Part shown: piece after piece, positions 27,642 to 44,558 of the stretch
Layout of the letters: each line of letters begins with the position of its first letter
Numbering within the stretch: position 1 is the stretch's first letter
DNA from: a virus
Reading direction: 5' to 3' (one strand)
Virus record (IMG/VR): IMGVR_UViG_3300023174_000078
Coordinates: 32,001 to 96,000 of that record
Length of the DNA stretch: 64,000 nt
Position numbers and translations under genes: made by a program
The notes under the pieces: generated by a model
Told to the model about the DNA's origin: nothing
Databases searched by the model: none
The model's input: the letters and a program-made list of their open reading frames with translations, nothing else

Positions 27642-28589
27642 ATGTCCGATTCATCTTTTGTTCAATCTTTACAGCAACTAGTCCGCAAGAATGAAGGAAG
27701 ACCTCATTCGCAGGCTGAAGTACTGCGGGAGCTGGATCAGCGTTACTTGGATACATTTAATTTGAGTGTAGAACCATTGGGGAAGAAAAACCTGATTTAC
27801 TTTACTCTTAATTATAATTTAGAGTATATTGATTTATTTATTTATTGTTTGCGTTCTATTGTTAATAAAGACAGACCTGATTTATTTGATTTATTGATTA
27901 TATGTCCTCCTTTGTTTGAAACAACGATTAATGAATTAATTGAGGCGCGTAACATAGACCTGAAAGGATTTAAATTAATGTTTCATCATGTGGATGAAGC
28001 GGTTGATGGTATCGAGGCTTCTATGAATAAACTGAAGATATACCAATTCAAAGATATAAACGCATACGGAAAGATATTATTCCTTGATGTTGATATTATG
28101 GCTGTAGAACCAGTCAGTAATTTATTCAAACTTGATGTAGACCCGAATAAATTACACGCAGCTATTCATTCTACGACCTTGCATTTACATAATACTAAGT
28201 ACCACAGGCTAGTGGATTATGACGCTGGTAAGATGAATGAATTTAGGGATGCTGGTATATATGCCTTTAATGCTGGGCAGTTTTTATTTAACAATAGTGC
28301 GAGGATGCTGCAGCATATGCGTAATGTGGATTGGTTATCCTCCACATGGCCCGGTGAATATTTCTTCGAACAATCTTATTTAAACCACTATTTTAATTGG
28401 TACGGCATTTCTGATATAGACTTGCTAGATAACTGCGTTAAATTCGAGGCTGTCCATTTAAACAATAAAGTAGGATTTAATTGGCAAATTAAATTGAATT
28501 ACTCTATTATACACTTTGCTGGGCATGCATGTGATGCGGGCAAGAAAATAGAATACATTCGTAACTTTCATCTTGAATTAATTAATTAA
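27642..28589 (+). CDS. Glycosyltransferase, GT8-like
   Basis: KILFLDVDI, FNAGQF, EQSYLN, IIHFAG. Confidence 0.8.
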   Translation: MSDSSFVQSLQQLVRKNEGRPHSQAEVLRELDQRYLDTFNLSVEPLGKKNLIYFTLNYNLEYIDLFIYCLRSIVNKDRPDLFDLLIICPPLFETTINELIEARNIDLKGFKLMFHHVDEAVDGIEASMNKLKIYQFKDINAYGKILFLDVDIMAVEPVSNLFKLDVDPNKLHAAIHSTTLHLHNTKYHRLVDYDAGKMNEFRDAGIYAFNAGQFLFNNSARMLQHMRNVDWLSSTWPGEYFFEQSYLNHYFNWYGISDIDLLDNCVKFEAVHLNNKVGFNWQIKLNYSIIHFAGHACDAGKKIEYIRNFHLELIN

Positions 28590-28595
28590 TTAATT

Positions 28596-29222
28596 ATGTC
28601 AAACTACATACTATCCCATTGTAACTTTATCCACATTCCTAAATGTGGAGGTTCAGCATTAAATAATACTTTCCATAGGCTAGGTTTAGTTACCGATCCA
28701 GATAAACAGATGTTAAAGGAGCCGCATTACGGACATCTATTCCCATGTCAGATGCCTGAGAGCGAGAATCCGTACTTTGCATTTGTTAGGCATCCTGCTT
28801 CGTGGTGGTTGTCTTATTACCACTTCAACATGAACACAGAACATTCGCGGTTTTCAGCTGCGGAACTCTCCACGACTTCATTTGATGAATGGGTGCGTGA
28901 CTACGGTCCTTTTTGGTTGGGATTTTATTCTAAAATAGTGCAGCGCTATTTGGGCCGCGATCCCAATTTTCCGGCGAGTTCTAAAATAGAGTTAATCGGA
29001 CGCACTGAGTATTTATTCAGTGATTTACGCCGCATCTTTAATGTTATAGGACAACCATACAATTCAAATGTACTGCGTGATTTAATTTCTGGTAAACTTA
29101 AACTAAATGATAAACAGGCAAACAGGCAGGACTATGATCATACAGACATGTCCCAAGCATCCCGGGAAATAATCTTTGAGTGTGAACAACCCGTTTACAG
29201 GATGTTCAGCTATAAAATGTAA
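28596..29222 (+). CDS. Sulfotransferase (family 2-like)
   Basis: PAPS-binding motifs FIHIPKCGGS and FVRHP..WWLSYY. Confidence 0.8.
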   Translation: MSNYILSHCNFIHIPKCGGSALNNTFHRLGLVTDPDKQMLKEPHYGHLFPCQMPESENPYFAFVRHPASWWLSYYHFNMNTEHSRFSAAELSTTSFDEWVRDYGPFWLGFYSKIVQRYLGRDPNFPASSKIELIGRTEYLFSDLRRIFNVIGQPYNSNVLRDLISGKLKLNDKQANRQDYDHTDMSQASREIIFECEQPVYRMFSYKM

Positions 29223-29224
29223 TT

Positions 29225-29953
29225 ATGGAAGCATATGATCCGTTATTAATGGGGAATTGGCATCATGATATTGTCATTAATGCTGCTGTTAGAACGCGCG
29301 ATTTATCGCCAGCATACAATGACAGATCTACAACCAGTAAAGAAGGCTTGGCTAAAGAAATAAAGGACATATACGGAGAAGCATTAAAAGATAAGAATGT
29401 ATTGGATATTGCCTGTAATGCGGGCGGTCATTTGTATGCGTTAAACAGATTTGGTATTAATTCCGGGTTTGGCTTTGATGCGCGGTCCTTATGGATACAG
29501 CAAGCGCATTGGTTAAAAAGGAATATAGATATTCCGTGTGATAACCTGACATTCGTGGAAGGTAGCTTTGATGTACTGCAAGACTTTGAAGACAGACATT
29601 TTCATTTGTCTTTGTTTAACGGGATATTCTATCACTTAGCCGATCCTATAACGCAGCTAGCTAAAGTAGCGGAAAAGACATCTGAGTTGCTTGTTATTAA
29701 TACTGCTTATGCGCCTCAGCACTCTGCAGGTCCTCCTGCGTTAATATTCAAAATGGAGGATGCGTCTATTGAAACAGGTTTAAGTGGTCTGGATGGATTA
29801 TCTTGGCTTCCTAGTGGTGAATATGTTCTTTACCGTATTCTTAAACATATGGGCTTTCCATATGCGCAGCTCATGTTCAAAAGTCCTAAGACCAATCGCC
29901 TAGCTGTTATTGCGGCACGCGAGGAAGGTTTACTAACTATTGCTGATGTATGA
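29225..29953 (+). CDS. Class I SAM-dependent methyltransferase
   Basis: VLDIACNAGG, GIFYHLADP. Confidence 0.8.
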   Translation: MEAYDPLLMGNWHHDIVINAAVRTRDLSPAYNDRSTTSKEGLAKEIKDIYGEALKDKNVLDIACNAGGHLYALNRFGINSGFGFDARSLWIQQAHWLKRNIDIPCDNLTFVEGSFDVLQDFEDRHFHLSLFNGIFYHLADPITQLAKVAEKTSELLVINTAYAPQHSAGPPALIFKMEDASIETGLSGLDGLSWLPSGEYVLYRILKHMGFPYAQLMFKSPKTNRLAVIAAREEGLLTIADV

Positions 29954-30456
29954 CCCCGCCAGTGCTATGGTTGTATGGTTTATCTGGGAGCGGTAAAACG
30001 ACTGTTTCTCGCTATGCGCAGTATATCATTAACTCGTGGCACGCACCCGTGATTGTATTAGATGCAGATGTATTGAGAAAAGATTACTGGCCTGAGATAG
30101 GATTAACCAAGAGTGCCCGGCTAGAGAATACACGGCGTATCGCTAAATTAGCGAAGACTTATAAAGATCTGAATATTGCTGTATTGGTAGCTGCGTGTGC
30201 GCCGTTCCAGGAACAAAGAGAGGATGTACTTCGTTTATTACCTGACACTAAGTTTGTTTACATGGACACACCATTAGACATATGCCGGGAGCGTAAACCT
30301 TACACATATAAAGATCCGGCGAGATCAGTTACTTCGGTAGAGCACACACCACCCCCTTGGGCAACTATAGACGGTAAACAAGATATCGACTCGATTCTTA
30401 CCGCGACTTCAGTCATCTTAGAGCGATGGCTTCCCTTTCAAATTTCAAGTACCTAG
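29950..30456 (+). CDS. cysC: Adenylyl-sulfate (APS) kinase-like protein
   Basis: LWLYGLSGSGKTT, LDADVLR, RLENTRRIAKLAK, VYMDTPLDIC. Confidence 0.8.
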   Translation: MTPPVLWLYGLSGSGKTTVSRYAQYIINSWHAPVIVLDADVLRKDYWPEIGLTKSARLENTRRIAKLAKTYKDLNIAVLVAACAPFQEQREDVLRLLPDTKFVYMDTPLDICRERKPYTYKDPARSVTSVEHTPPPWATIDGKQDIDSILTATSVILERWLPFQISST

Positions 30457-30478
30457 AGGTACGAACAAACAACAAATA

Positions 30479-32982
30479 ATGAACTCACTGGTTAACTCTG
30501 TACCAGCTTTTAATGGTTGCTTTACGCATCAGATAAAAAGATTTGTATCCTACGGCGTGTTTACGCCTGTAATTCTAGCTTCATCCGCTGCTGTAACTGG
30601 CGATGTTTTAGGAGAGCTGTATAGCAAACTGTTTCAGCTCAGCCCTTTTTTCTCTGAATCACAATTGCAACTGAGACATGTTATTAAAACCAAACTGTAT
30701 GACGACACTGAATACGGGTGAACGTCGCGAATTTGCTGCGTATCACCTACTGTACAAGCGGTCTGTATTTAATACACAAGACGACGTGATTGACCTGTTT
30801 GATATTTTATCAAACTTCACGGATTGCGTGCATGGTGATGTATGGGATGTGATTTTAGTTAATCTACGAACGCCAATATATCAAGCGGCAGGTAGCCATA
30901 TAGCAAATTATGCGTCCGCAATCCTGAATGAGACAATATGAGAAGAAAAAAAGATTACTTAGGTGATTATGTCGCTGATAGTGTAAACGATATATGTTGG
31001 AGTTGTGTGATACACATTATCACGGATATCATTTTTATGGCGACATCTCGTCCTGTTTACAAGGAAATTTATGGATTTATAGATACACATGTTTCTGATT
31101 CTGTAGGCAATATAGTTCATATAAAAATAAATAATGAATGCGATTTATAAATCTGTTAACGCTACGTATAGCCGAAAAACATGAAAACACTTTCTGATAC
31201 TGTCTGGTCTCAAACTTGGTATTGTATTCACATTTCTATATGGACCTCGATAGGCCGCGCGACTAATGCTGATACGGCGGTTTCTACGCACGAATTTGTT
31301 TCGGACGCAATTTTTGAACCTGTAGCTAAAGCTACTGGCACGCGTTACGTCGATTCAACAATATATGAAATTGTTAAATCCTAAAAAACAAATGAGTACA
31401 CACTAAATGATGAATGATAAAACTCTTTATAACTCTATAACGACGCTAGTGTCTGTTTTTGCGCTCGATGGTTTAGAAGATCATGTTTTTAGCGTTACTC
31501 GCGGCTCCTGCGCAGCTAGGTCTGTGTGGATAACTGTTATGCATCAAGTCTTTGACATTACGCACAGGGCTACAGCCGATCCTAATTATGGTATTACCTC
31601 ACGTCTTGCCAAAGTATTAAATAAAAAAATAAATGAGTAATATTTACTACTCTATTTGGACATCTATTTGCGATAATGTCTGTGGTGGCGTGGAGCGCAA
31701 TGGGCTTGACACTTTATGGGATACAGCGCGCTATTCCGTAGAGGATACTGTTTGGTTTGCTATCAGCGCCAATATCTTCGGGATTATGCCCGACGCTGTA
31801 GAAAAAACTATTTGTAACCATCTTTATGCTAAAACTTGAAAAATCCGTTTCACACTTCGCGCGTATTATGGTTCAGCCCAATATAATTGACCCCGTTAAA
31901 CATAATGCGTGGCAGGCTATTAGTGAGCAAGATTGGGAAGACGTATGGCTAATTCCTGCCGAATCGATATATACCGCCGCACGTAATAACGTGAGTGAGC
32001 TGGTCAGGAGTTTTTTGTTACACACACACACAAACCTTATTAAAATGAGTACCGATAATGAATTAAGACGGGCTGTTAACGAGATTAGCGACGCGCTAGT
32101 TTGGAAAAATTTAAGGAGCGCAATATGGTCTCATATGGAAGCTGATAGATGGTGGAGTACCCGTTTTGCGCTGAGTGACAGCATGACGGCTAAAAATGTA
32201 TGTACCGCTAACTTCTTCGTTAATTCTTACATGAATCAACAAAAATATGGATAATGTTTTATACAGAACTATTTTTCACAATGTGTGGCGTCCTGTACAC
32301 CGCTGTGTGTTGTACCGTATACAAGATAGCACAGCAAACGCTTTAATAGGCGATGTGTTTGAATCTGGATGGGTTGCTATCAGAGATGCTGCTTACATAC
32401 CTGTGGAGGATATGCTTCATCCGTACGTTTCTTTAAAATTTAATTCAATATGCGTGTAGACAATTCACCACACCCGGCAGTCATTCGCTGTATTGACGAT
32501 AAACATAACGCTTCAAATTAGACACCGCCATCGCGGTCGTTTCCCTGCGGTGAAATCCAAATTCTGCACAACATGACAATTCACGATTCTAGCGATACCC
32601 AGGTATACTACGCGATCAATAAGTACATCTGGTTCGATATCCGGGCTGCTATAAAGGATTTTATTTGTTACGACGCGTATCGCTACGTTGAGAACGAAAT
32701 TTATGATAAAGCAGACAGTGTTACATACTATTCTGTATGCGAATATGTGGAGCTGAGCCTCAAAATTTATAAATGAATAACCCGACACTTTTTGTTTCAG
32801 TCTATAACCCTCCCGGATTAATTCCCCTAGTTGGGCAGTTGCACTTAAGGTGTGCGATGAACTATAGAGACGAAGTATGGACGGCTATGTCGAATAACGC
32901 CGCCCATATTAGCAAGCGTTTAGGCCATGCGTCTTATCATACTGATCGCAAGATAGCTGAGGATTTACACCAGTACACATAG
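30479..32982 (+). other. Tandem array of about 10 diverged 67-87 aa micro-genes (one 142-aa double unit), related to the SVxx-repeat family
   Basis: ORFs at 30479, 30699, 30938, 31181, 31407, 31633, 31826, 32247, 32573, 32773; V/I every 4th residue, frequent VW/IW; C-termini ILNETI, KINNECDL, KKINE. Confidence 0.65.
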
Positions 32983-33012
32983 CTTATGAATTTATGATAC
33001 AATACTGAAACT

Positions 33013-33363
33013 ATGAGCACAAATAAAGAAATCAAAGTCACACCAAGAGTCTGGAAAGCTATGCGCTACGCTGGAGATGGCTATGACACATACGGTAAAC
33101 AAAGAGATGGTAAAAATTATTGCGATCTCGAGACCGCAGTGACTCTAGAGACTGAATTACAGGCAGCTACAAAGGAATTAAAACTTCTGCAAAAGCAGAA
33201 CGATAAACTACTAAAAGCGCTGCGGGCCTTTACGCGATTCGGCAGCAGTCCCGGAGCAGGTGGCGGCGGAACTTTAGATTTATACACGCAAGGACAACGT
33301 GTAACCGAAAAGAATGTTCGTGACATAGCAAGGAAAGCACTAAAAGCATATGGCCCTAAATGA
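33013..33363 (+). CDS. Hypothetical protein
   Basis: 116-aa ORF. Confidence 0.55.
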   Translation: MSTNKEIKVTPRVWKAMRYAGDGYDTYGKQRDGKNYCDLETAVTLETELQAATKELKLLQKQNDKLLKALRAFTRFGSSPGAGGGGTLDLYTQGQRVTEKNVRDIARKALKAYGPK

Positions 33364-33607
33364 AGAATTCATAAAGGTAGAAACAGCATATCACACACCT
33401 CCTGGAGGTCAGCAGGTTGGTCCAGTTTCCGCAGGGGTTAAAGTGACACATGAGTTCGGTGGTATATCTGTGACATGCGATTTAGGTAGGTCACAGAAAC
33501 AGAATAAAGATATGGCTTTAGGAGCTATTGAATACTTATTAGTAGAAGCAGGATACACAGACGCCGTGTTATTTAAAAAAGATGAACATAATTCAAAAAG
33601 CAGCTGA
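33350..33607 (+). CDS. Stand-alone release-factor GGQ (peptidyl-tRNA hydrolase) domain protein
   Basis: PGGQQVG..GVKVTH..GISVTC..RSQKQNKDMAL parallels RF GGQHVN..AVRITH.PTGIVV.CQ..RSQ.KNK..A. Confidence 0.75.
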   Translation: MALNEEFIKVETAYHTPPGGQQVGPVSAGVKVTHEFGGISVTCDLGRSQKQNKDMALGAIEYLLVEAGYTDAVLFKKDEHNSKSS

Positions 33608-34052
33608 CTACGCGTTATTGGCGCATAATGGTCAGAAACGTAAAAATGGTAAGCCGTACTTCACACATGTTGAAGCTGTAGCGAACCTTGTGAACGATAA
33701 CTGGTCCAGATTGATTCCGCCCACAGCGCAAGATAACTGGAACGATTATAAAGACCATGTGGTGGCTGCGGCATATCTACATGATGTAATCGAAGATTGC
33801 GGTGTGACTAAAGATATGCTTATTGCATGCAGCTTCTCTGTGATGACTGTCGAAATTGTCGAAGCATTATCCAAGAAGCCCGGCGAGAATTACTTTGATT
33901 TCATTATGCGCATTCACGATAGTGGTGCGTTCCGTCCAGGTATAGTTGCAGTTAAACTTTGCGATCTAGAACACAATATGAGTGACTTGGATAACGGTTC
34001 ACTCAAGGATAAATACAGGCTAGCGCATTATATACTTAATTATTTTAACTGA
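33582..34052 (+). CDS. HD-domain hydrolase, RelA/SpoT-HD (small alarmone hydrolase)-like
   Basis: AHNGQKRKNGKPYFTH, AAYLHDVIED, VKLCDLEHNM. Confidence 0.8.
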   Translation: MNIIQKAADYALLAHNGQKRKNGKPYFTHVEAVANLVNDNWSRLIPPTAQDNWNDYKDHVVAAAYLHDVIEDCGVTKDMLIACSFSVMTVEIVEALSKKPGENYFDFIMRIHDSGAFRPGIVAVKLCDLEHNMSDLDNGSLKDKYRLAHYILNYFN

Positions 34053-34066
34053 GCAGATCAAAAACA

Positions 34067-37000
34067 ATGACAACCGCTACTACACCTATGCCAAAGACAA
34101 GACAAGAACTGAAAAAATCATCGCATAAATCATTGCGTGCGATGTATAAAACTGTGTTGAGAGAATTAGTTCTTAAAAAGAATTACAGTATCTTTGACGC
34201 TGCCTTTAAGTTTGACATGGATGAGATTACCGCTATCGGTATTTTGTTTGATAAAAAACCAACGCAGGCACAAATCGATTACGCGTTGGAGATTTATAAT
34301 AAAGGATTGTCTATGACTGTCGCTTGTGTGGCCGCGAGCGTTCCATTCAAGATATTTAAGAAAGCGCACGGCACAGCCCCCCGGAACGAATACAAACCCA
34401 AGCGGTGGTAATTATGACTCCAAATCGATTTAATGAGATTGTAGTAAATCGCGCCAAAGAGCGTGTGAAAGCTAAAGTAGCTAAATTTGAAGCTACTATT
34501 GCCAAAGCATTTAAGGATTTACATCCTTGCCTGGCGACAAGTAATTATTATAATAGATGGTCCTCAGGACCACAGACGAAGCATGCTGTAGCTGTTATGC
34601 GCCTTCTATGTGGCGTGAAAGAAGAAAAGAATAAACCCGTTGGGTATCCCGAGGCCTTATGGCGGGACGAAGAAAAAGCAGTTGAAGAAGAATTGCTTGC
34701 TACTATGGATGAAATGGCTAAGGCTTTATTAGCCCCGCAAGATGACGAACCCTCCCCCATTGCAAAATATGACCCCACTCCAGACGACTCCTTTATCCCC
34801 AGTGGCGTCTAACGAGAAATTTATCAGCTGTGATTGCCATAGCGAATTTATACGGTTGAATTACGACAAAGAAATCGAATGCTTTGATGTATCCATTTGG
34901 ACTTTACAGGCAAGTAGTAAACCACACTGGCGCACAAAGCTTCGTTGGTTATGGCGTATTCTGACCAATGACTCACCGTATGGTGATCAGGTTATTATTA
35001 ATGAAGATAAGGCCAAAGAACTGGCTGATTATATACTAGAAAAGTTAGCGAGCAAAAGCGGGGCTTAACGCCCTAGTAGTACTAGTGCCAAATTCACAGC
35101 GATGAAAACAACTGAAGAAATTCAAATTTTGGAATGCCGCACGTGTAAGCATAAGCCTATATTCGTACCTTTGCCTGCTGCGGAATTTCCTATTTCGTTT
35201 GTTTCGTTATGTGGGTGCAATTATGGTTCTCTGCATCATGGTATTCATTCTACGATGCGTGTTAATGCTGATATTATAAAGAATAATTCCGTAATACGTA
35301 AAGCCTCTTTAACAGCCGCAATCAAAAAGTGGAATCGGCGCGTTGCGACGTATATCAAATCCAAACAAACACGATATGACCCTGATTATGTGACCTGTCG
35401 TTACTGCAAACGAGACGGTTTGCTGCGCGGTCGTCGTCCTTACATTTCTAGATGGAAACCTTCTTCTAAATTTTTGTTATACGAAAAAGTTGAACAACCG
35501 CCTTCACCTGCTGGATCTTCCAACTGGCCAACGTTTCAGACACACAAATTCAAGATACACAGTTGTTTGTCACGAAAGAACATCGTATCAGAGAAAATTA
35601 TAACAGACTAAAGTTATGGCTAGAGATAAAACTGATGAAATTCTATGCGTTCTTTTCGATGAAGAATACATAAAGCGAGCTGCTGAATTCTTTGAATACA
35701 CTTTACGTGGTTTAGGCAAGGACGATGAGTTTAGAATCGATATACTGTACAGTTACTCGTATGTAACCGAATCAGTTTATTACGTGGTCTCAGTACCCGG
35801 GCTATGTTTACCTGAAAACATCGCGGTCATATTGGATAAGCGATTTGACACCAAGTTGGAGGCTGTGAGGAATCTCGCACTGTGTGCTTGTATGTTCGCA
35901 CAGCAACACGCTGAGAAGGAGCTAGCAACTCCTCCAGATGAGCAGGGCTGGATGTCAGAGTCAATGGCCTACTGGCATAGGCTAAGAGAGGAAGTTAGCA
36001 CGTACAAAAATCAATATTTATCCGATTTGACATGACAAAAAACACACGAATAGTTTTTGGCGACGATCTGGCGACTGATCAAAAAAACAGGTTGCGGTAT
36101 ATTAAAGATACTTTAGATAAAGGTAAAGTCGTCCGCTTTACCAATAATATTAATGGCATCACCAAAGATGTTAATATCTGGAATTCTGATATCGAGGGAG
36201 ATTTAACAGCTTTTAGGCATACAGGGCGTTCGCCTTATGTATGTTGGCGGGCAGAACAATACGATGTATCCGAACTAGATGAGTGAACAATCCAATAACC
36301 AAGCTCCGCAACCTACTCGGCCCGATGGCTGGGTAGGTTGGTCGAAACACGCACTCGAAAATGAACTTCGGGCGCGTATGGCTCACTTTTATGGGCAGAC
36401 GGATGGAACCATGAAATTTCCATCTTCTGCCGAAGGTGATCTATTAAAAATGGTGCATCGTCTTCTCGCGCAGAGTAATGATGCTCCTATTAAAGAAATA
36501 AAAGAAACAGATCCTTTTTATTATGTACTAAATCCCGATAAGGTAGTAACCAACCCAACTTGTGGTTGTCGTGAATGTAATCCTAATGCCTGGTGGATGG
36601 TTGTGTGCTCTATATGTGGTAACAAACGATGTCCGCATGGTACGAGTCACGAATTCAAATGTACAAATAGCAATGAGCCGGGGCAACCAGGTAGTGTCTT
36701 TTCCCAAAAATTCTATCCGAATATTAAAGGCTCGACTGACAACGAAACACCAACAAAATAGAAATTTACAATATGGGTCTTTACGATGATGTCTCTGTAC
36801 CGATTGAGTTATTAAAAGCACAGGAAGATGAGCGCATAAAGAAATATGCGGCGCTACTAACTGGTGTGAATGTAGATTTTCAAACCAAAAGCCTAGACTG
36901 CTGCATGCAGGAGTATGTGCTTAAAAAAATTGAAGATAAGTATGTGCTGCATAAAGAAAATGTTGAACGTGAGTGCGTAGAGTCTCCCGATTCTAAGTCT

Positions 37001-37357
37001 ATATTTAAGTTCCATTTCGTAGAGAAATCCAGAACCACTACCCCGGAGTTAATTACCGCCACGCTGTCAATGTGTGATTACTACAATAGCGATACCTTAG
37101 ATATTTTTATAGATTTGAAAATGGAATTGGTTGCTGGTGTGGTCACGAGCATCGTCTGTGCGCTGTATGAAGAACGCGATCCAGCACCACGACTTCAAAG
37201 GAATAAGGAGATGGTGCAGAAAATGAAAGAGAGCGCTATCTATTACAAAAGCTTTCGGGGTAGAGCTGCGATTGTTTTAAGACGCGCGTTGTTCGCTATT
37301 CACAAAAAGATAGATAAATGCAACGGTTGGTTACAAAGATTGGCTTTTAAATTATGA
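34067..37357 (+). other. Cluster of hypothetical phage ORFs
   Basis: ORFs at 34067, 34405, 34742, 35102, 35616, 36032, 36279, 36773; several with CxxC motifs. Confidence 0.55.
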
Positions 37358-37740
37358 ATATCATTTTTTTAGATGATGACTTAAATCGTTGGAAGAGTTT
37401 TCGTTCCAAGGTGCCGCAGGCTGTACATGTAGAGACAGCTGCGGCGTGCATTAAACTTATCAAAGACACACCTGTCATTGATTGGTTATTTCTAGATCAT
37501 GATTTAGGCGGTGAAGCTTATGTGAAATCTTATCGCGAAGATTGTGGTATGGAAGTTGTGCGTTATTTGTGTGCGGAAAATCGCAACCAAACTATACATA
37601 ATATTGTTGTACATTCGCATAACGCCCCAGCCGCGCAGGAGATGTTTAATAAGTTACAAGATGCTGGCTATAAAACGCAGCTATTGCCGTTTTATAGTTT
37701 AGTTGACGCAATATCTGTAAATCTTGATGCTACGACTTGA
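37354..37740 (+). CDS. Cyclic-phosphate-processing receiver (cREC)-like domain protein
   Basis: IFLDDD, FLDHDLGG, GMEVVRYL, VHSHN motifs. Confidence 0.7.
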   Translation: MNIIFLDDDLNRWKSFRSKVPQAVHVETAAACIKLIKDTPVIDWLFLDHDLGGEAYVKSYREDCGMEVVRYLCAENRNQTIHNIVVHSHNAPAAQEMFNKLQDAGYKTQLLPFYSLVDAISVNLDATT

Positions 37741-38402
37741 GCATGTTTGGGTCACCTTCATGTTACATCAAAAGTGCTAAACTTACTGCCTATCTATTAA
37801 ATAAATTTAATATTACTAAAAGTGAAAACAATCAAGATATAGTTCTTCTGTCTTTATTCGCTAGCGTAAAATCCTTCAAACTTAACATGTTCTCTCGTTC
37901 CTTTACGGCCAAAGAAGTCGCCACAATGATCCTGAATGAAAATGATCCAAAAACAATGGATTATTTTTTTATGAAATTACTAGATGTTCAATTAGAGAAC
38001 ACGCAGATTAATTATAGTGGTACTTTGACTGGTACTGTACGAAGTGCAAAGTCTAGAATTACTGAAGCTTTTGGTGTATTGAGTCGCATACGTAACTTTG
38101 CCCGTGGGCAAATCTATTTTGTTATGGATATTCATGAGCATCAGATTTTTCCAAAGTCTAGATCTTTCAGAATTTGCAGTCGCAGACTAATGCCAAGTAA
38201 GGTAATTAATCCTAATGCAGGGCAGAAGAAACAAATTACTTATGGTTCTGGTTATGTCTCGACTTACCTGGAGCCTAATGAGATTTTGATGTCGAAGCAT
38301 CTCGTGCTTTACTGTCGAAATGCTTGGGAGCGTAAAGGAGAAGTTAAACCTTCGCGGGCAAACCAGGCTAAGCCTGTGGTAAATGTTGACGCAACAGCAT
38401 AG
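37737..38402 (+). CDS. Hypothetical protein
   Basis: 221-aa ORF. Confidence 0.55.
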   Translation: MSMFGSPSCYIKSAKLTAYLLNKFNITKSENNQDIVLLSLFASVKSFKLNMFSRSFTAKEVATMILNENDPKTMDYFFMKLLDVQLENTQINYSGTLTGTVRSAKSRITEAFGVLSRIRNFARGQIYFVMDIHEHQIFPKSRSFRICSRRLMPSKVINPNAGQKKQITYGSGYVSTYLEPNEILMSKHLVLYCRNAWERKGEVKPSRANQAKPVVNVDATA

Positions 38403-38428
38403 GTACTTAGTGTTATATAATCATGTAT
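38391..38428 (+). promoter_or_regulatory. Recurrent promoter-like motif, copy 5
   Basis: GCAA-N15-GTGTTATATAATCATGTA. Confidence 0.55.
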
Positions 38429-38693
38429 GGGTAAGTATATCAATCATACTCAAAATGGGCCGCTTCAGCAGAAACACAAAGCGGCAGAATTGAATAAGGC
38501 AGGTGCAGAACTTCTGTTAGACACGCCTACAACGTGGGAAGAAGGACTGATCTGCGTGGTGAGTAATGGTATATTCGAAGCGGCGGCGTATGTCCAGGAT
38601 GCCCGGGATCTCGAAGATTTCTCTGAGTTCGTGTGGGACACCAGGCCGCGTGTATGGCTCAAATGGGATAGGGCTAAAGAGTTCGCTAAATGA
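38427..38693 (+). CDS. Hypothetical protein
   Basis: 88 aa; ATGA-coupled to the next gene. Confidence 0.6.
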   Translation: MGKYINHTQNGPLQQKHKAAELNKAGAELLLDTPTTWEEGLICVVSNGIFEAAAYVQDARDLEDFSEFVWDTRPRVWLKWDRAKEFAK

Positions 38694-39265
38694 ACATCTT
38701 CGCAATTTACAGATGCCCGGTCACGTCGGCCCGGCATCTTGTAGATTCCCATGTCGTGAAAATGGTATTGGAATCTGCGCAGATGCTAGCTAATTGCTTT
38801 ACGCCAGAACAACTTGCTGGTGCTGACTGTCCCAGAACGAAGGCAGGCACAGTACGCAAATATTCATATTACAATCATCCATGTAGTAAATGGGTGCGCG
38901 TGTCGCAAGAGAATATGCGCTGGTTATGTCGACATGCGCTGGCTATGGACGTTGAAAGAATTCAACGCTCAACAATCAGAATACAAGAACAACGACAATT
39001 AAGAGACCGTGGCTTACCGTATAGTGAAGCGATAGCGAACAGCACACCTGTTCCGCATCACAGCATTTCTTTTATTAATTGGGTAGTCGCTAATTTTCCG
39101 CGCAGTCTAATACCTGAAGGACCTTTGACAGAATTTGCACAGGCTATGCCAGATGAATTCAAATGTGCAGATTCTGTTCAAGCCTACCGCAACCTTTATA
39201 CGATAGGTAAAAAACATTTACATATATGGACGCGCAACAAACCTGACTGGATTAACCTATGCTAG
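38690..39265 (+). CDS. Pyrimidine dimer DNA glycosylase / endonuclease V family-like protein
   Basis: MNIF..HVVKMVLESAQML..NHPCSKWVR..N..WL..FAQAMPD..AYRNLY. Confidence 0.75.
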   Translation: MNIFAIYRCPVTSARHLVDSHVVKMVLESAQMLANCFTPEQLAGADCPRTKAGTVRKYSYYNHPCSKWVRVSQENMRWLCRHALAMDVERIQRSTIRIQEQRQLRDRGLPYSEAIANSTPVPHHSISFINWVVANFPRSLIPEGPLTEFAQAMPDEFKCADSVQAYRNLYTIGKKHLHIWTRNKPDWINLC

Positions 39266-39304
39266 ACCTTAATGATAGTTCACCCCTACTGCCCCGGCGT
39301 TTAA

Positions 39305-39517
39305 ATGAAACGATCACTTAATAATTCTGTCTGGCATTCTGTCCGTAATTCTGTCAATGAGTCTGTCCGTAATTCTGTCAGAAATTCTGCCCTGTATTCT
39401 GTCTGGGATTCTGTCTATAATTCTGTCTGGGATTCTGTCCGTAATTCTGTCAGTGGTTCTGTCTATAATTCTGTGTGGCATTCTGTCAGTAATAAAATAA
39501 ATGAAACGATCACTTAA
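39305..39517 (+). CDS. SVxx-repeat micro-protein 1
   Basis: MKRSLNN-(SVxx)n-KINETIT, 70 aa. Confidence 0.75.
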   Translation: MKRSLNNSVWHSVRNSVNESVRNSVRNSALYSVWDSVYNSVWDSVRNSVSGSVYNSVWHSVSNKINETIT

Positions 39518-39665
39518 TAATTCTGTCTGGCATTCTGTCCGTGATTCTGTCAGTGATTCTGTCTATAATTCTGTCTGGGATTCTGTCCGTAATTCTGTCA
39601 GTGGTTCTGTCTATAATTCTGTGTGGCATTCTGTCAGTAATAAAATAAATGAAACGATCACTTAA
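39501..39665 (+). CDS. SVxx-repeat micro-protein 2 (54 aa, not in ORF track)
   Basis: MKRSLNNSVWHSVRDSVSDSVYNSVWDSVRNSVSGSVYNSVWHSVSNKINETIT, translated by hand. Confidence 0.75.
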   Translation: MKRSLNNSVWHSVRDSVSDSVYNSVWDSVRNSVSGSVYNSVWHSVSNKINETIT

Positions 39666-39837
39666 TAATTCTGTCTGGCATTCTGTCCGTGATTCTGTCA
39701 GTGATTCTGTCTGGGATTCTGTCTATAATTCTGTCTGGAATTCTGTCAGTGGTTCTGTCAGGGATTCTGTCTATAATCCTGTCAATGAGTCTGTCAGAGA
39801 TTCTGTCAGTAATAAAATAAATGAAACAAGCACTTAA
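39649..39837 (+). CDS. SVxx-repeat micro-protein 3
   Basis: 62 aa, same architecture. Confidence 0.75.
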   Translation: MKRSLNNSVWHSVRDSVSDSVWDSVYNSVWNSVSGSVRDSVYNPVNESVRDSVSNKINETST

Positions 39838-40009
39838 TAATTCTGTCCATAGTTTTGTCAGTGATTCTGTCTTTAGTTCTGTCCGTAATTCTGTCAGAGA
39901 TTTTGTCAGTAATTCTGTCCGGTATTCTGTCAGTGATTCTGTCTGGGATTCTGTCTTTAATTCTGTCAATAATTCTGTCAGTAATAAAATAAATGAAACG
40001 ATCACTTAG
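39821..40009 (+). CDS. SVxx-repeat micro-protein 4
   Basis: 62 aa, same architecture. Confidence 0.75.
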   Translation: MKQALNNSVHSFVSDSVFSSVRNSVRDFVSNSVRYSVSDSVWDSVFNSVNNSVSNKINETIT

Positions 40010-40181
40010 TAGTTCTGTCCGTAGTTTTGTCAGTAATTCTGTCAGTAATTCTGTCAGTGGTTCTGTCTGGGATTCTGTCTGGCATTCTGTCCGGTATTCT
40101 GTCAGTGATTCTGTCTGGGATTCTGTCTTTAATTCTGTCAATGAGTCTGTCCGTAATAAAATAAATGAAACAATCACTTAA
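39993..40181 (+). CDS. SVxx-repeat micro-protein 5
   Basis: 62 aa, same architecture. Confidence 0.75.
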   Translation: MKRSLSSSVRSFVSNSVSNSVSGSVWDSVWHSVRYSVSDSVWDSVFNSVNESVRNKINETIT

Positions 40182-40365
40182 TAATTCTGTCAGTGGTTCT
40201 GTCTGGGATTCTGTCAGTAATTCTGTCAGTAATTCTGTCAATAATTCTGTCAGTGATTCTGTCAGTGGTTCTGTCTGGGATTCTGTCGGTGATTCTATCT
40301 GGGATTCTGTCTATGATTCTGTCCGTAATTCTGTCAGTAATAAAATAAATGAAACAATTACTTAA
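40165..40365 (+). CDS. SVxx-repeat micro-protein 6
   Basis: 66 aa, same architecture. Confidence 0.75.
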   Translation: MKQSLNNSVSGSVWDSVSNSVSNSVNNSVSDSVSGSVWDSVGDSIWDSVYDSVRNSVSNKINETIT

Positions 40366-40585
40366 TAATTCTGTCGATGATTCTGTCTGGGATTCTGTCA
40401 GTAATTCTGTCGACGATTCTGTCTGGGATTCTGTCTGGGATTCTGTCTTTAGTTCTGTCTGGAATTCTGTCTGGGATTCTGTCCGTAATTCTGTCAGTGG
40501 TTCTGTCTATAATTCTGTGTGGCATTCTGTCCGTGATTCTGTCAGTAATTCTGTCCGTAATAAAATAAATGAAACAATCACTTAA
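40349..40585 (+). CDS. SVxx-repeat micro-protein 7
   Basis: 78 aa, same architecture. Confidence 0.75.
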   Translation: MKQLLNNSVDDSVWDSVSNSVDDSVWDSVWDSVFSSVWNSVWDSVRNSVSGSVYNSVWHSVRDSVSNSVRNKINETIT

Positions 40586-40817
40586 TAATTCTGTCAGCAA
40601 TTCTGTCTGGAATTCTGTCCGTAATTCTGTCAGTGGTTCTGTCTATAATTCTATCAGTGATTCTGTCCGGTATCCTGTCAGTAATTCTATCAGTGATTCT
40701 GTCCGGTATCCTGTCAGTAATTCTGTCAATGATTCTGTCTGGTATTCTGTCTGGGATTCTGTCCGTAGTTTTGTCAGTAGTTTTGTCAGTAATAAAATAA
40801 ATGAAACAATCATTTAG
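40569..40817 (+). CDS. SVxx-repeat micro-protein 8
   Basis: 82 aa, same architecture. Confidence 0.75.
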   Translation: MKQSLNNSVSNSVWNSVRNSVSGSVYNSISDSVRYPVSNSISDSVRYPVSNSVNDSVWYSVWDSVRSFVSSFVSNKINETII

Positions 40818-41049
40818 TGATTCTGTCTGGGATTCTGTCAATAATTCCGTCCGTGATTCTGTCCGTAATTCTGTCCGTGGTTCTGCATATAATTATGTCG
40901 GTGATTCTGTCTGGCATTCTGTCTGGCATTCTGTCCGTGATTCTGTCCGTAGTTTTGTCTGGGATTCTGTCGGTGGTTTTGTCTGGGATCCTGTCAGTGA
41001 TTCTGTCAATGAGTCTGTCCGTAATAAAATAAATGAAACAATCACTTAA
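40801..41049 (+). CDS. SVxx-repeat micro-protein 9
   Basis: 82 aa, same architecture. Confidence 0.75.
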   Translation: MKQSFSDSVWDSVNNSVRDSVRNSVRGSAYNYVGDSVWHSVWHSVRDSVRSFVWDSVGGFVWDPVSDSVNESVRNKINETIT

Positions 41050-41293
41050 TAATTCTGTCAGTGGTTCTGTCTGGGATTCTGTCAGTAATTCTGTCAGTAA
41101 TTCTGTCAATAATTCTGTCAGTGATTCTGTCAGTGGTTCTGTCTGGGATTCTGTCTGTAATTCTGTCTGGGATTCTGTCTGGAATTTTGTCTATAATTCT
41201 GTCTGGAATTCTGTCAGTGGTTCTGTCAGGGATTCTGTCTGGCATTCTGTCTGGGCTTCTGTCAGTAATAAAATAAATGAAACAATCACTTAA
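41033..41293 (+). CDS. SVxx-repeat micro-protein 10
   Basis: 86 aa, same architecture. Confidence 0.75.
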   Translation: MKQSLNNSVSGSVWDSVSNSVSNSVNNSVSDSVSGSVWDSVCNSVWDSVWNFVYNSVWNSVSGSVRDSVWHSVWASVSNKINETIT

Positions 41294-41426
41294 TAATTCT
41301 GTCCATAGTTTTGTCAGAGATTCTGTCAGAGATTCTGTCTGGGATTCTGTCTGTCATTCTGTCTATAATTCTGTCCGTAATAAAATAAATGAAACTACAC
41401 GATTACAAATTAGAACCTCAAAATGA
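41277..41426 (+). CDS. SVxx-repeat micro-protein 11 (49 aa, not in ORF track)
   Basis: MKQSLNNSVHSFVRDSVRDSVWDSVCHSVYNSVRNKINETTRLQIRTSK; overlaps the start of 41389. Confidence 0.7.
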   Translation: MKQSLNNSVHSFVRDSVRDSVWDSVCHSVYNSVRNKINETTRLQIRTSK

Positions 41427-41817
41427 AACATTAGCTGTACTACGTAAACATGGTTTCAATTTGTCGCGCATGATTGCCTACAGCAAATCTACATACTTAT
41501 CAATGCATCCGGAGCATCAAGTAGTGTTCAATGCCAATATTTTTACTCCGCAAGGTAAAGCTTGGTGGGGTGACTTGGATCTAACGAAAGATTCAGAAAA
41601 TCTACAGCTTGCAGCTGCCGATATCGGTTCCACTTTATACGTGCTACGTGAATCGGATGGTCGCTTTGGCAATGAGCAGCGTACTGTGTCAGAATTAGAA
41701 AAATTAGCCGTCAAGAAATTTGAAGTTAAGTCAAAACAAAAAAAATCAATTCAAACATGTCTACAATCTTTAGCATCCAAGGTAACACAATTTTTCTCCG
41801 CGACCCGGAGGCGATGA
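41389..41817 (+). CDS. Hypothetical protein coupled to the array
   Basis: Starts inside a final copy of the array junction (AATAAAATAA-ATGAAAC). Confidence 0.7.
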   Translation: MKLHDYKLEPQNETLAVLRKHGFNLSRMIAYSKSTYLSMHPEHQVVFNANIFTPQGKAWWGDLDLTKDSENLQLAAADIGSTLYVLRESDGRFGNEQRTVSELEKLAVKKFEVKSKQKKSIQTCLQSLASKVTQFFSATRRR

Positions 41818-42857
41818 ATTTCCACGATAAGCTTCCACCGGAAGTTTACGCGATTAAAGAGCACCCTATCACTGAGGAGTTGTTTTTAGATAAGATTGAT
41901 TGTTTTAATATACCGCACAAGAGATACGGTAATAATGACAGGTACGCCCAACGTATCTTGAACAGCTTCAAGCTACGCAATCAAGCGACCGGTGTTCTCT
42001 TGTGTGGGGAGAAGGGGTCCGGTAAGTCGCTACTTGCCAAAACTCTAGCCAATATCGCGCAAGCAGAGGGGTTGCCAGTTATCGTGGTTAACACACCACG
42101 CACTGGTGACGCTTTCTTCCAGCTTATTCAGCGGATTGAGCAGCCCGCTATTATTCTCTTTGATGAGTTCGAGAAGGTGTACGACTCAGACAAACAGAAA
42201 GAAGTTCTGACGCTGCTTGACGGCATCTATCCGTCCAATAAATTGTATGTCTTCACGGTCAACGATAAGTGGAAGCTGGATGTGAACATGCGCAACCGCC
42301 CCGGACGTATTTTCTATTCCATTGACTACAAAGGCATCGAAGAAAAGTTTATTCGTGAGTACTGCGAAGACAATTTGAATGATAAGTCGCAGGTCGACCA
42401 TATCGTTCGTATCAACACACTGTTCAGTGCGTTTAATTTTGATATGCTGCAGGCTTTGGTTGAGGAAATGAATCGTTATAATGAAGATCCATTTGAGGCG
42501 ATTCAGTTGCTGAATATCAAACCCGAGTACGAAGATGCCACAACCTTCACTACGTTTATTTCCGTCGATGGTACGCCTGATTCGCATATCACATGTGACC
42601 GGGACTTTAATGGTAAGCCTTTGGGCGACCGTGTGAAAATCTATTACCATAAGTATAGGCGTCTGGATATTTCCAAGGAACACTGTGATAACGAAGCCGA
42701 CTGGCTGTCCGCTGAGTTTGTTCCAACGGATTTGGTTTCCGTCAGTAAGGACGGTAAAACTTTCTTGTTTAAGAATAGCAAAGGCGAATCTGTTACGCTG
42801 CAAGCTAAAAAGAGTGATACCGCATTCGATTACCGCACTTTCGCTTACGCGAGCTAG
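41757..42857 (+). CDS. AAA+ ATPase
   Basis: Walker A GEKGSGKS, Walker B ILFDEFEK, NRPGRI. Confidence 0.9.
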   Translation: MSTIFSIQGNTIFLRDPEAMNFHDKLPPEVYAIKEHPITEELFLDKIDCFNIPHKRYGNNDRYAQRILNSFKLRNQATGVLLCGEKGSGKSLLAKTLANIAQAEGLPVIVVNTPRTGDAFFQLIQRIEQPAIILFDEFEKVYDSDKQKEVLTLLDGIYPSNKLYVFTVNDKWKLDVNMRNRPGRIFYSIDYKGIEEKFIREYCEDNLNDKSQVDHIVRINTLFSAFNFDMLQALVEEMNRYNEDPFEAIQLLNIKPEYEDATTFTTFISVDGTPDSHITCDRDFNGKPLGDRVKIYYHKYRRLDISKEHCDNEADWLSAEFVPTDLVSVSKDGKTFLFKNSKGESVTLQAKKSDTAFDYRTFAYAS

Positions 42858-42904
42858 TGTGCATTAAAAACAAATCAAACAAATTAAACAAAAGTCATAC
42901 AATC

Positions 42905-43942
42905 ATGGACGCGAAACAGCAAAAAGAAAAGATCTCCGAACTCACTCCTGAGCAAAAGGCTAAGATGCCAGAATATGTTAAGAAGTGGATTGCTATCGGC
43001 AACGACACTTCCCGGTTGAATTATGATCGTACTGTCGACATCATTCATGCGGTTCAGAAGCACATCCTGAAGAAAGAACCTACTCCGGTTTTGATCTTTG
43101 ATAACCCCATGGAGGCCTGGGTAGCGTGTAACTATGCCGCACACGGTCACAAGGTTAATGAACTCAAGAACTGTGTGGAGGAGTTCTTCAGTGGAAAGAA
43201 ACCCAAGTGGAAACTTGGTCAGTATGTTTCACCCTATCTCAATGGGTCATTCGCAGCACCAACGTTCGCCTTCTACGACTTTTTCAAGTTCGAGTTGGGC
43301 GTTTCGTTTGACACTACCGGTACGCCAGTCGCAGCTGCGCAAGACAACAGCGCGCTTAGCGTGGATGAACTGTATGAGATCTGGAAGAGCACCACAGAGC
43401 TTGGACTGATCTATCCAATTCACGACGTCCAAGGTGCAGCACAGGATATGTGTATCGTGTCTCAAAAACCATCGCGGGTAAAAGTTAATGAAGCCGGTGT
43501 CGTACACTGCGATGGCGCTGTTGCCATTGAGTACGAGGGGCATGGCGATATCAAGATTTATGCGCTCAATGGTGTGACTGTTCCTGATTGGTTGGCTTTG
43601 ACGCCAGCCCAGAACATCCCCGTCGAGCGGATACACGAAATTAAAAATGCAGACATTAAAGCCGAGTTTGTTCGCAAGATCGGTGTTGAGCGTTTGCTTG
43701 ACATGGGAAGCAAAGTGGACTCTTATGAGGCTCATTCTGATGAGTGGTGGCACAAGTCGCAATACGAGCTTTGGGATATGCACAACCTGTTTCCTAATGT
43801 TGAGTACGCCCCACACCTCAAGATGCTGAATCAGACGACCAAAATCTGGCACGTTGAGGCTGTATCTCCTAGTTGCAGAACAATCGAAGATGCGTTGAAA
43901 GACCGGTATGGTCGCAATGTTGACATCATTGAAATCGCCTAA
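42905..43942 (+). CDS. DUF6745-like protein lacking an internal tetrapeptide-repeat tract
   Basis: LTPEQ..YVKKWIAIG, AFYDFF, IVSQKP..VHCDGAVAIEY..IYALNGVTVP..IKNADIKAEFVRKIGVER; family recognised from memory. Confidence 0.75.
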   Translation: MDAKQQKEKISELTPEQKAKMPEYVKKWIAIGNDTSRLNYDRTVDIIHAVQKHILKKEPTPVLIFDNPMEAWVACNYAAHGHKVNELKNCVEEFFSGKKPKWKLGQYVSPYLNGSFAAPTFAFYDFFKFELGVSFDTTGTPVAAAQDNSALSVDELYEIWKSTTELGLIYPIHDVQGAAQDMCIVSQKPSRVKVNEAGVVHCDGAVAIEYEGHGDIKIYALNGVTVPDWLALTPAQNIPVERIHEIKNADIKAEFVRKIGVERLLDMGSKVDSYEAHSDEWWHKSQYELWDMHNLFPNVEYAPHLKMLNQTTKIWHVEAVSPSCRTIEDALKDRYGRNVDIIEIA

Positions 43943-43952
43943 ATAAATTACG

Positions 43953-43981
43953 GGGCAATAAATAAACCTATTGCCCTATTT
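43953..43981 (+). terminator. Hairpin / weak terminator
   Basis: GGGCAATA/TATTGCCC followed by TATTT. Confidence 0.45.
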
Positions 43982-44022
43982 AAAAAAACAAAGCACCGTA
44001 ACACAAATCAGACGCTAACAAC

Positions 44023-44391
44023 ATGTCAAAATCCAAAGCAACCAAGTCCAAAGTCAATTCCAACGCCGCGCGCGCAATCCTTCACGGCGAGTGCGGTATC
44101 GTACAATCCCCCATCCCCGAGGATGCCACCGCCGTCAAGATCAAGGACAACTGCTTGATCCTGGCCGACTCCGAAACCACGGGTAACCACCACGTTCTCG
44201 ACGTCTTGCCGGGCGTTGAAGTCCTGGAGAAGGAAGGGAAGCGTTTTATGCGCAATTCCGTCCCCGCCCAGGTCCGCTGCTTACACACGGACCGGCACGA
44301 TGCCCTCGTCGTACCCCCCGGTGAATGGGAGTTCATCATCGCTCAGGAGTTCGACTACTTCGAAATGAGCAAGCGCAATGTCCGCGACTAA
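44023..44391 (+). CDS. Small His-motif protein of the type usually adjacent to DUF6745 genes
   Basis: HGE..LADSETTGNHH..H..HDALVVPPGEW..QEFD..RNVRD; strong C/G-ending codon bias. Confidence 0.7.
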   Translation: MSKSKATKSKVNSNAARAILHGECGIVQSPIPEDATAVKIKDNCLILADSETTGNHHVLDVLPGVEVLEKEGKRFMRNSVPAQVRCLHTDRHDALVVPPGEWEFIIAQEFDYFEMSKRNVRD

Positions 44392-44558
44392 GCTCCTGGA
44401 CTCGCTCTTGCTCGAGCTTGAGGATACTTGGGGATATACCCGGGAAGAACTCAGTGATATTCAAGATAAGCTGCTAGTGTTTGCTAGCACTGTTTCTATT
44501 AGTACGACTATGTCCGAAGAAGTGCAGAAATTAGCTGAAGACTTATAATTGATTATGC

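Follow-up and report, generated by a model that had tools for sequence, protein, structure and literature searches.

We analysed a window of 64,000 nucleotides (nt), bases 32001-96000 of the 121,276-bp viral record IMGVR_UViG_3300023174_000078 (estimated completeness 67 %), which stems from a phage in lake water that carries nearly all of its genes on the + strand. At 30479-32982 of this window, between an APS-kinase gene and a block of small accessory genes, lie ten small + strand open reading frames (ORFs) of 67-142 amino acids (aa) plus two stubs, whose stops and starts overlap or abut. The start-stop overlaps measure 4 to 44 nt; two neighbouring ORF pairs are gapped. The chain has one 113-nt spacer and one 22-nt gap containing a 4-codon stub. 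We call this region the old array and compare it with a young, regular array farther downstream. An earlier note, made from the letters of this DNA, had described about ten overlapping small ORFs here as a diverged array of the same family as the young one, and the ten + strand ORFs are present as it described them. The features are listed below; values in brackets are the score against a hidden Markov model (HMM) of the young units and the p value of a test for a four-residue period of hydrophobic residues.

29950-30456: APS-kinase gene, directly before the old array (Pfam 89.6 bits)
30479..30721, + strand: first small ORF, 80 aa, family membership not supported (HMM 2.4 bits, within shuffles; period-4 p 0.14)
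30678..30941, + strand: diverged unit, 87 aa, C-terminus ILNETI (HMM 10.4 bits, reached by 0 scored shuffles; period-4 p 0.02)
30938..31150, + strand: diverged unit, 70 aa, C-terminus KINNECDL, used for docking (HMM 23.7 bits; period-4 p < 0.0005)
31134..31184, + strand: 16-aa stub with a unit-like start (one-mismatch junction 11-mer at 31124)
31181..31384, + strand: diverged unit, 67 aa, N-terminus MKTLSDTVW (HMM 13.0 bits; period-4 p 0.002)
31392..31406, + strand: 4-codon stub after a junction-like motif (one-mismatch 11-mer at 31385)
31407..31640, + strand: diverged unit, 77 aa, C-terminus NKKINE (HMM 10.4 bits; period-4 p 0.0055)
31633..31839, + strand: diverged unit, 68 aa (HMM 21.0 bits; period-4 p < 0.0005)
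31826..32254, + strand: two units fused in frame, 142 aa (HMM 14.0 bits)
32020..32032, + strand: (AC)6A dinucleotide run at the end of the first fused unit, read from the sequence
32247..32459, + strand: diverged unit, 70 aa (HMM 17.8 bits; period-4 p 0.005)
32460..32572: 113-nt spacer, strain-variable (differences in sequencing runs X3 and X4)
32573..32776, + strand: diverged unit, 67 aa (HMM 10.9 bits; period-4 p < 0.0005 with V/I/L)
32773..32982, + strand: last small ORF, 69 aa, family membership not supported, codon usage gene-like (HMM 0.6 bits; period-4 p 0.93)
39305..41426, + strand: young regular xSVx array of 11 units, pairwise identity 69 %, the reference for the family

Eight of the ten old ORFs (30678 to 32573) have more V/I/L Fourier power at period 4.0 than shuffled sequences (2000 shuffles, p <= 0.02); at period 3.6 the same test gave no V/I/L signal in the old ORFs. 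The same eight score 10.4-23.7 bits against the HMM of the 11 young units, above every scored composition-matched shuffle (200 were made per ORF, of which 186-200 received a score). The earlier note had read the V/I grammar into the array at large and had proposed both tests; grammar and profile kinship hold for these eight ORFs and are not seen in those at 30479 and 32773. Among 706 six-frame ORFs of at least 40 aa, the eight are the top matches to the HMM outside the young array itself, and the next best in the 121-kb genome are off-frames of the young array (<= 9.5 bits), followed by noise (<= 5.9 bits). An hhalign comparison of the old and young alignments extends over 73 columns, starting in the N-cap and reaching the KINE end, with a probability of 96.3 % and an E value of 1.6e-9. 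Eight of the ten ORFs (30678-32776), or nine units when the fusion is counted as two, are thereby confirmed as members of the young-array family.

The kinship reaches beyond this genome. An HMM built from old units only retrieves regular units, together with proteins of the Pfam family DUF6745 that bear an internal tetrapeptide tract, from other phages (a 476-aa protein, for one, scores 60.9 bits), and six of the ten old ORFs retrieve such units or proteins singly in phmmer searches. ORF 31633..31839 alone finds 65 ORFs in 23 loci, among them a DUF6745 protein with a tract (E 3.9e-12), and matches a site-A unit of the closest phage, G001, at a blastp E value of 3.2e-6; ORF 32247..32459 finds 16 ORFs in seven loci, and ORF 31181..31384 matches units in six other loci. 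PHROGs searches of the old ORFs gave nothing below E 0.03, and Pfam searches of the seven old ORFs scanned gave chance-level rows only and no match to DUF6745 (PF20530). The units do not match that model because it covers the C-domain after the tract (for example, residues 136-269 of the relative P0073) and not the tract.

The old units have diverged far. On average two of them are ~18 % identical, where young units reach 69 %, and their identity between residues i and i+4 is 0.04-0.17, against 0.36-0.52 in regular units. The earlier note saw no obvious DNA repeat, in agreement with Tandem Repeats Finder, which reports 0 arrays in the old array; a repeat search found only short junction-like pairs there. 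At a lag of 12, DNA identity in the old array is 0.313; the young array reaches 0.690, and two control gene blocks give 0.273-0.275. The 12-bp repeat that is typical of regular units is absent inside the old units, as it is from 56 of 179 units elsewhere.

What survives at the DNA level is found at the junctions. Of the 12 exact copies of the 11-mer AAAATAAATGA in the window, 11 belong to the young array and the twelfth lies at 31626-31636, at the junction of ORFs 31407 and 31633, where the earlier note had remarked on a likeness near 31620. One-mismatch copies at 31124 and 31385 both stand at stub starts, and at up to one mismatch 23 copies were found versus 4.7 in shuffles. A junction-like sequence (repeat D2) also precedes ORF 30479..30721. 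The endings ILNETI, KINNE and KKINE, which the note had likened to those of the young array, are visible by eye; an ungapped position-specific scoring matrix (PSSM) of the young C-cap, which cannot score truncated caps, ranks just 1 of 10 old ORFs within the highest-scoring 3 % of the background. By the same measure the young N-cap places 0 of 10 and the G001 N-cap 5 of 10. The start of ORF 32773..32982 (..TLFVSVYN..) beats 658 of 658 background ORFs against the G001 N-cap, a hint only, as one of 40 tests.

All ten ORFs look like real genes. Read in frame, they and the 16-aa stub have codon scores of 0.14-0.36 bits per codon (ORF 30479..30721: 0.207). The reference, 357 pieces taken from 87 long genes of this phage, lies at 0.313 +/- 0.116, and off-frame readings of the old ORFs score -0.44 to -1.68. 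The old array keeps 797 codons open although each of the six frames holds 35-68 stops, a qualitative argument for selection on open frames. Relatives of single units on other metagenome contigs, at 66-100 % identity, retain their ORFs: P0007 (100 %) and P0010 (77 %) for ORF 30678..30941, P0001 and P0008 for 30938..31150, P0003 and P0004 for 31181..31384, P0002 and P0011 for 31407..31640, and P0005 (97 %, reaching further upstream) for 32573..32776.

Strain comparison draws on the lake and freshwater metagenome runs X2, X3, X4 and X6, which contain the region 30479-32982 or close relatives of it. Among the variants listed for the X4 strain, which is ~9 % diverged, indels inside ORFs amount to a net 0 or 3 letters (+3 at 30627-30632, within ORF 30479..30721; +1 and -1 at 31007/31011; +3 at 31444-31445), and the remaining ones fall at a junction, in the spacer or at the fusion point. 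Of the nine period-4 core positions that changed between strains, six swapped one of L, I, V and M for another.

Strains differ in how many units they have. Around the 16-aa stub X4 has 673 letters in place of the 59 of the window (31107-31165), and at the site of the 4-codon stub it has ~690 extra letters between pieces ending at 31388 and starting at 31383; from this extra sequence, the stubs mark loss of units in this phage or their gain in the relative. The 16-aa stub, which the earlier note took to maintain the overlap chain, is present at 31134-31184, and is better read as such a scar, given the 673 letters that a relative has there. The spacer varies as well: X3 skips 32500-32569, and X4 has 173 letters replacing 32500-32697. 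One terminator-like site on the - strand (32524-32537) lies inside this spacer.

ORF 31826-32254 is confirmed as two fused units, as the note had proposed. In the three runs that differ from the window here, X3, X4 and X6, the (AC)6 run is 4 letters shorter at 32020, and the relatives P0006 and P0009 (72 aa) end after the first half of the fused ORF. With 4 letters fewer at 32020 the first unit ends in ...LLHTQTLLK and a stop, as in P0009, and its end forms an ATGA overlap with the next start. The (AC)6A run could act as a slippage switch between fused and split forms.

The phage has a gene of its own for a relative of the tract-bearing proteins, 9.9 kb downstream of the old array.

42857..43942, + strand: DUF6745-like protein of 361 aa without a tract, predicted core for docking (19.3 bits against Pfam DUF6745, short of the cut-off at 27)

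A PF20530 search of the phage's own genome gave no match at E <= 10; P0012, a relative of the core protein (49 % identity, E 4.5e-88), passes the DUF6745 cut-off at 37.3 bits, and P0073 does so at 53 bits. At E <= 1e-3 the core protein finds 2216 relatives. Among the best 150 of these, 40 carry a regular internal tetrapeptide tract of 20-268 residues, located between the N-domain and an F-V-W-P-Y-type motif, and 26 match the young-unit HMM at E <= 1e-3; the window's core protein and its nearest relatives have no such tract. The tract of these proteins (PF20530, phrog_31813) has the form x-x-[V/I/L]-x, often with W, R or G after the hydrophobic residue, and is flanked by N- and C-domains homologous to the 42857-43942 protein. 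The array family probably consists of free-standing copies of this tract, which in the old array differ from it in being separate genes and degenerate.

Among 77 viral loci encoding core relatives, ORFs of 45 match the young or the old HMM, and many of the loci contain free chained units of 50-130 aa, with caps and repeat flavour (xSVx, xEVx, xQVx, xNVx) specific to each array. After removal of four near-twin loci, we counted 179 free units in 25 loci, of which 80 are regular, 43 intermediate and 56 degenerate (i/i+4 identity < 0.2). With 56 of 179 units elsewhere as degenerate as its own, the old array is an ordinary degenerate member of a widespread unnamed family. Free units occur in 0 of 20 tract-bearing loci, versus at least three units in 24 of 57 tract-less loci (Fisher 1.7e-4).

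At two of these loci, L009 (14741-17758) and L008 (12041-13347), many units have long MEFC..FC N-terminal extensions that are an off-frame reading of the preceding unit; their true starts are probably the internal MNKIN-type ones, and the extensions arise from the first-start rule. At L063, a 184-aa ORF of x-I-F-x tetrapeptides (9465-10019; AIFRTIFRAIFG...), which old unit 32247 matches at E 1.1e-8, overlaps a core-matching ORF of the DUF6745 type (9248-10600) and may be an off-frame reading of the internal tract of the DUF6745 gene and not a separate gene. We rejected the AAA+ ATPase (41757-42857) directly upstream of the core gene as part of a conserved system with the core: it has a homologue in 2 of 77 loci, of which L003, in the closest phage, gives a strong match (664 bits) and L048 a weak one (30 bits, ~6 kb from the core gene).

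G001, whose core protein is 79 % identical, is collinear with 27642-44548 of the window. It has seven regular units after its APS-kinase gene and one extra gene, the site of the old array in the window, and 11 regular units after its phrog_624 gene, the site of the young array, with identical caps in both arrays. Arrays at both sites in G001 place the origin of the two-site layout before the two phages separated, and the earlier note's proposal that array birth recurs finds no support here. The arrays of G001 are homogenised; in the window's phage the units of one site are down to a mean pairwise identity of 18 %. Instead of a new birth, one site may have been homogenised or re-expanded repeatedly, which would give the contrast between old and young. 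The young array and the G001 arrays resemble the old one in their chained + strand ORFs of 50-90 aa, V/I at every fourth residue, junction 11-mer and KINE-type ends, and the young array differs from it in its 12-bp DNA repeat and constant 17-nt overlap. The window lacks a counterpart of the extra gene that G001 has between APS kinase and first array (210 aa; L081, G001:C1:16500-36000, reverse strand, ORF 2380-3012 of the reoriented locus).

Modelled as a complex, the core and unit 30938-31150 scored 0.78 as the median of three runs, and none of three controls exceeded 0.02. Of 80 solved complexes 58 come up to this mark, as do 2 of 110 mismatched pairs, counts that hold only roughly here, where the alignments had 18 rows for the core and 3 (own, shallow) for the unit. 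The runs share at least 87 % of contacts, with a predicted local distance difference test (pLDDT) value of at least 78 for the partner. In the model, contacts with the core follow the register of the unit: 15 of 15 V/I residues touch it, as do 14 of 15 residues before them, 10 of 15 after them and 4 of 15 polar ones. On the core, the modelled interface takes in residues 84-95, 120-153 and 169-241; its stretches 84-95 and 120-129 coincide in part with EAWVAC (86-91) and YVSPYLNGS (123-131), the motifs that flank the tract insertion point. The model lends support to, and is no proof of, binding of unit 30938-31150 to the tract-less DUF6745-like core.

Several searches and neighbouring features complete the description. 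Blastn of the old-array region and tblastn of unit 30938-31150 against cultured phages found no match, nor did tblastn of the 42857-43942 core protein. Scans of viral and metagenome contigs with the APS kinase and two unit alignments, aimed at DNA of relatives, found none, and the sequencing runs listed for the region include no RNA run. Atlas neighbours of unit 30938-31150 are clusters of small viral hypothetical proteins without a family and serve as leads only. Neither the promoter-like sites (10 versus 10.5 expected) nor the terminator-like sites at 29900-33700 (7 versus 3.1 +/- 1.8 in shuffles) enter the argument. Just downstream of the old array, a small protein (33350-33607) has RF-1-domain-like PHROG matches (phrog_20323, E 1.5e-4), and its gene overlaps the start of an HD-type phosphohydrolase gene (33582-34052; phrog_990, E 6.6e-32). 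A 922-aa ORF at 8905-11673 has a weak match to an intein-splicing domain (21.6 bits, under the Pfam cut-off of 35.8).

The reading we favour, with some reserve, builds on the observed family membership, coding status, synteny and strain turnover: 30678-32776 is probably a translationally chained, diverged array of the same family as the young array, whose selected units clip onto the tract-less core. The old array would have gone long without homogenisation, to ~18 % identity and the loss of its DNA repeat, while selection kept each unit open with V/I/L at every fourth residue. Each unit would be a helical protein of ~70 aa whose period-4 hydrophobic stripe lies on the phage's own tract-less core (42857-43942); there it would take the place held by the cis tract in relatives, its variable polar positions facing the solvent. 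The diverged array would then supply one core with a stable range of different surfaces, and the regular array with a range that changes fast and is prone to slippage. The period-4 test, HMM, genome-wide background, hhalign, synteny, codon usage, indels and docking model all support the earlier note's suggestion of a diverged array of the same family whose members stay open because their products matter.

A number of observations weigh against this reading. ORFs 30479 and 32773 lack the family signal in both the period-4 and the HMM tests, and the ungapped cap matrices are weak. Changes between strains fall on 9 of 110 period-4 core positions and on 79 of 619 others, a difference that is not significant (p 0.2). 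The complementarity of tract and array is confounded with phylogeny, the array-bearing tract-less loci being closer relatives and the tract-bearing ones more distant; several of the 77 loci are near-twins, and 33 of the 57 tract-less loci have fewer than three free units within the DNA covered. The docking comes from one unit, one model and a 3-row partner alignment. The cis tract of P0073 (overall pLDDT 82.6) is modelled as long helices at pLDDT 43-54, the AlphaFold2 model of the 142-aa ORF alone has an uninformative pLDDT of 39.9, and a PDB fold search with the P0073 model (DUF6745 fold) gave 0 matches at E <= 0.001.

Some of these points suit an alternative that we consider unlikely yet worth keeping in sight, in which the units are real and selected but act alone or on host targets, by self-assembly or as decoys, and are not DUF6745 subunits. 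Between the old array and the core gene there are 10-12 kb, the 33 tract-less loci show no array within the DNA covered, and core binding is a model prediction only; against this, the docking score of 0.78 versus controls of at most 0.02, with the period-4 register at the predicted interface, and the lack of a free unit in any of the 20 tract-bearing loci favour units that would serve the core.

It is very unlikely that the old array is a disused former regular array, drifting to randomness with open frames left over. Two stubs and one fusion can be taken as ongoing damage, the units share only ~18 % identity, and core positions are not significantly more conserved than others; at that identity, however, 797 codons open among 35-68 stops per frame would by a rough estimate be a very improbable remnant, every ORF has gene-like codon usage, the indels listed inside ORFs keep the frame in a strain differing at ~9 % of letters, the period-4 hydrophobic register survives, and degenerate units are common in the arrays of other phages.

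That the old ORFs are unrelated small amphipathic proteins, like the young units through convergence or composition, is highly improbable: the common signal is a low-complexity period-4 profile, for which sequence alone leaves some room for convergence, the cap matrices place few ORFs (1 of 10, 0 of 10 and 5 of 10 for the young C-cap, young N-cap and G001 N-cap) and no Pfam or PHROG family links old and young in scans of the old ORFs, but no other ORF of the genome exceeds 5.9 bits outside the young-array frames, an exact junction 11-mer is common to both arrays, a regular array occupies the syntenic site in G001 and the hhalign match spans both caps. We give equally little credence to arrays acting as DNA, as silent cassettes that recombine into an expressed gene, since the varying unit number and the caps common to both G001 arrays, which fit exchange between arrays, are met by old units with no DNA similarity left for recombination, a core gene with no tract to receive them, and a start, a stop and gene-like codon usage in every unit.

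The nearest studied analogue of a core with clip-on units is a single phage protein built around a variable-number tetrapeptide repeat, the tunable counter-defence protein gp54 of mycobacteriophage Tweety (with Che8 gp57 and PMC gp51), the only relevant work found in the literature on phage tetrapeptide repeats. This protein has N- and C-domains around 40-48 AA-x-x tetrapeptides, and escape mutants with more or fewer gp54 repeats overcome the Phrann gp29/gp30 defence (PMC9262239, PMC2884959). There the AA-x-x repeat lies within one polypeptide, unlike the old units, which are separate ORFs of 67-142 aa. Tweety gp54 has no Pfam DUF6745 match, so the likeness is one of build and not of family. 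Literature searches by the Pfam name DUF6745 and on tandem small-gene arrays found no paper on the family. By analogy with gp54, the units may serve to match, or to evade, host factors that vary, defence systems for example.

Regular arrays could be dismissed as slippage-prone DNA; the old units persist as separate open genes after the repeat is lost. For this reason the old array offers the strongest indication so far that the mini-proteins are themselves in use, and the docking model puts their four-residue rhythm at the core interface. What is new at this locus is that units appear to outlive their DNA repeat as separate selected genes, keeping the register used in the model. For a large uncharacterised phage family this yields a testable hypothesis of one core and many clip-on surfaces. 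If that hypothesis holds, it would be a new viral way of encoding diversity, and possibly a modular scaffold for engineering. In a wider form, which we regard as possible but doubtful, a hypervariable protein would be split into a constant DUF6745 core and dozens of interchangeable helical mini-subunits, stored as a library in the genome, for recognising or evading variable host factors: regular arrays would make variants quickly by 12-bp slippage, and diverged arrays would be the long-kept, individually selected repertoire, the whole amounting to a germline-like store of surfaces for one scaffold.

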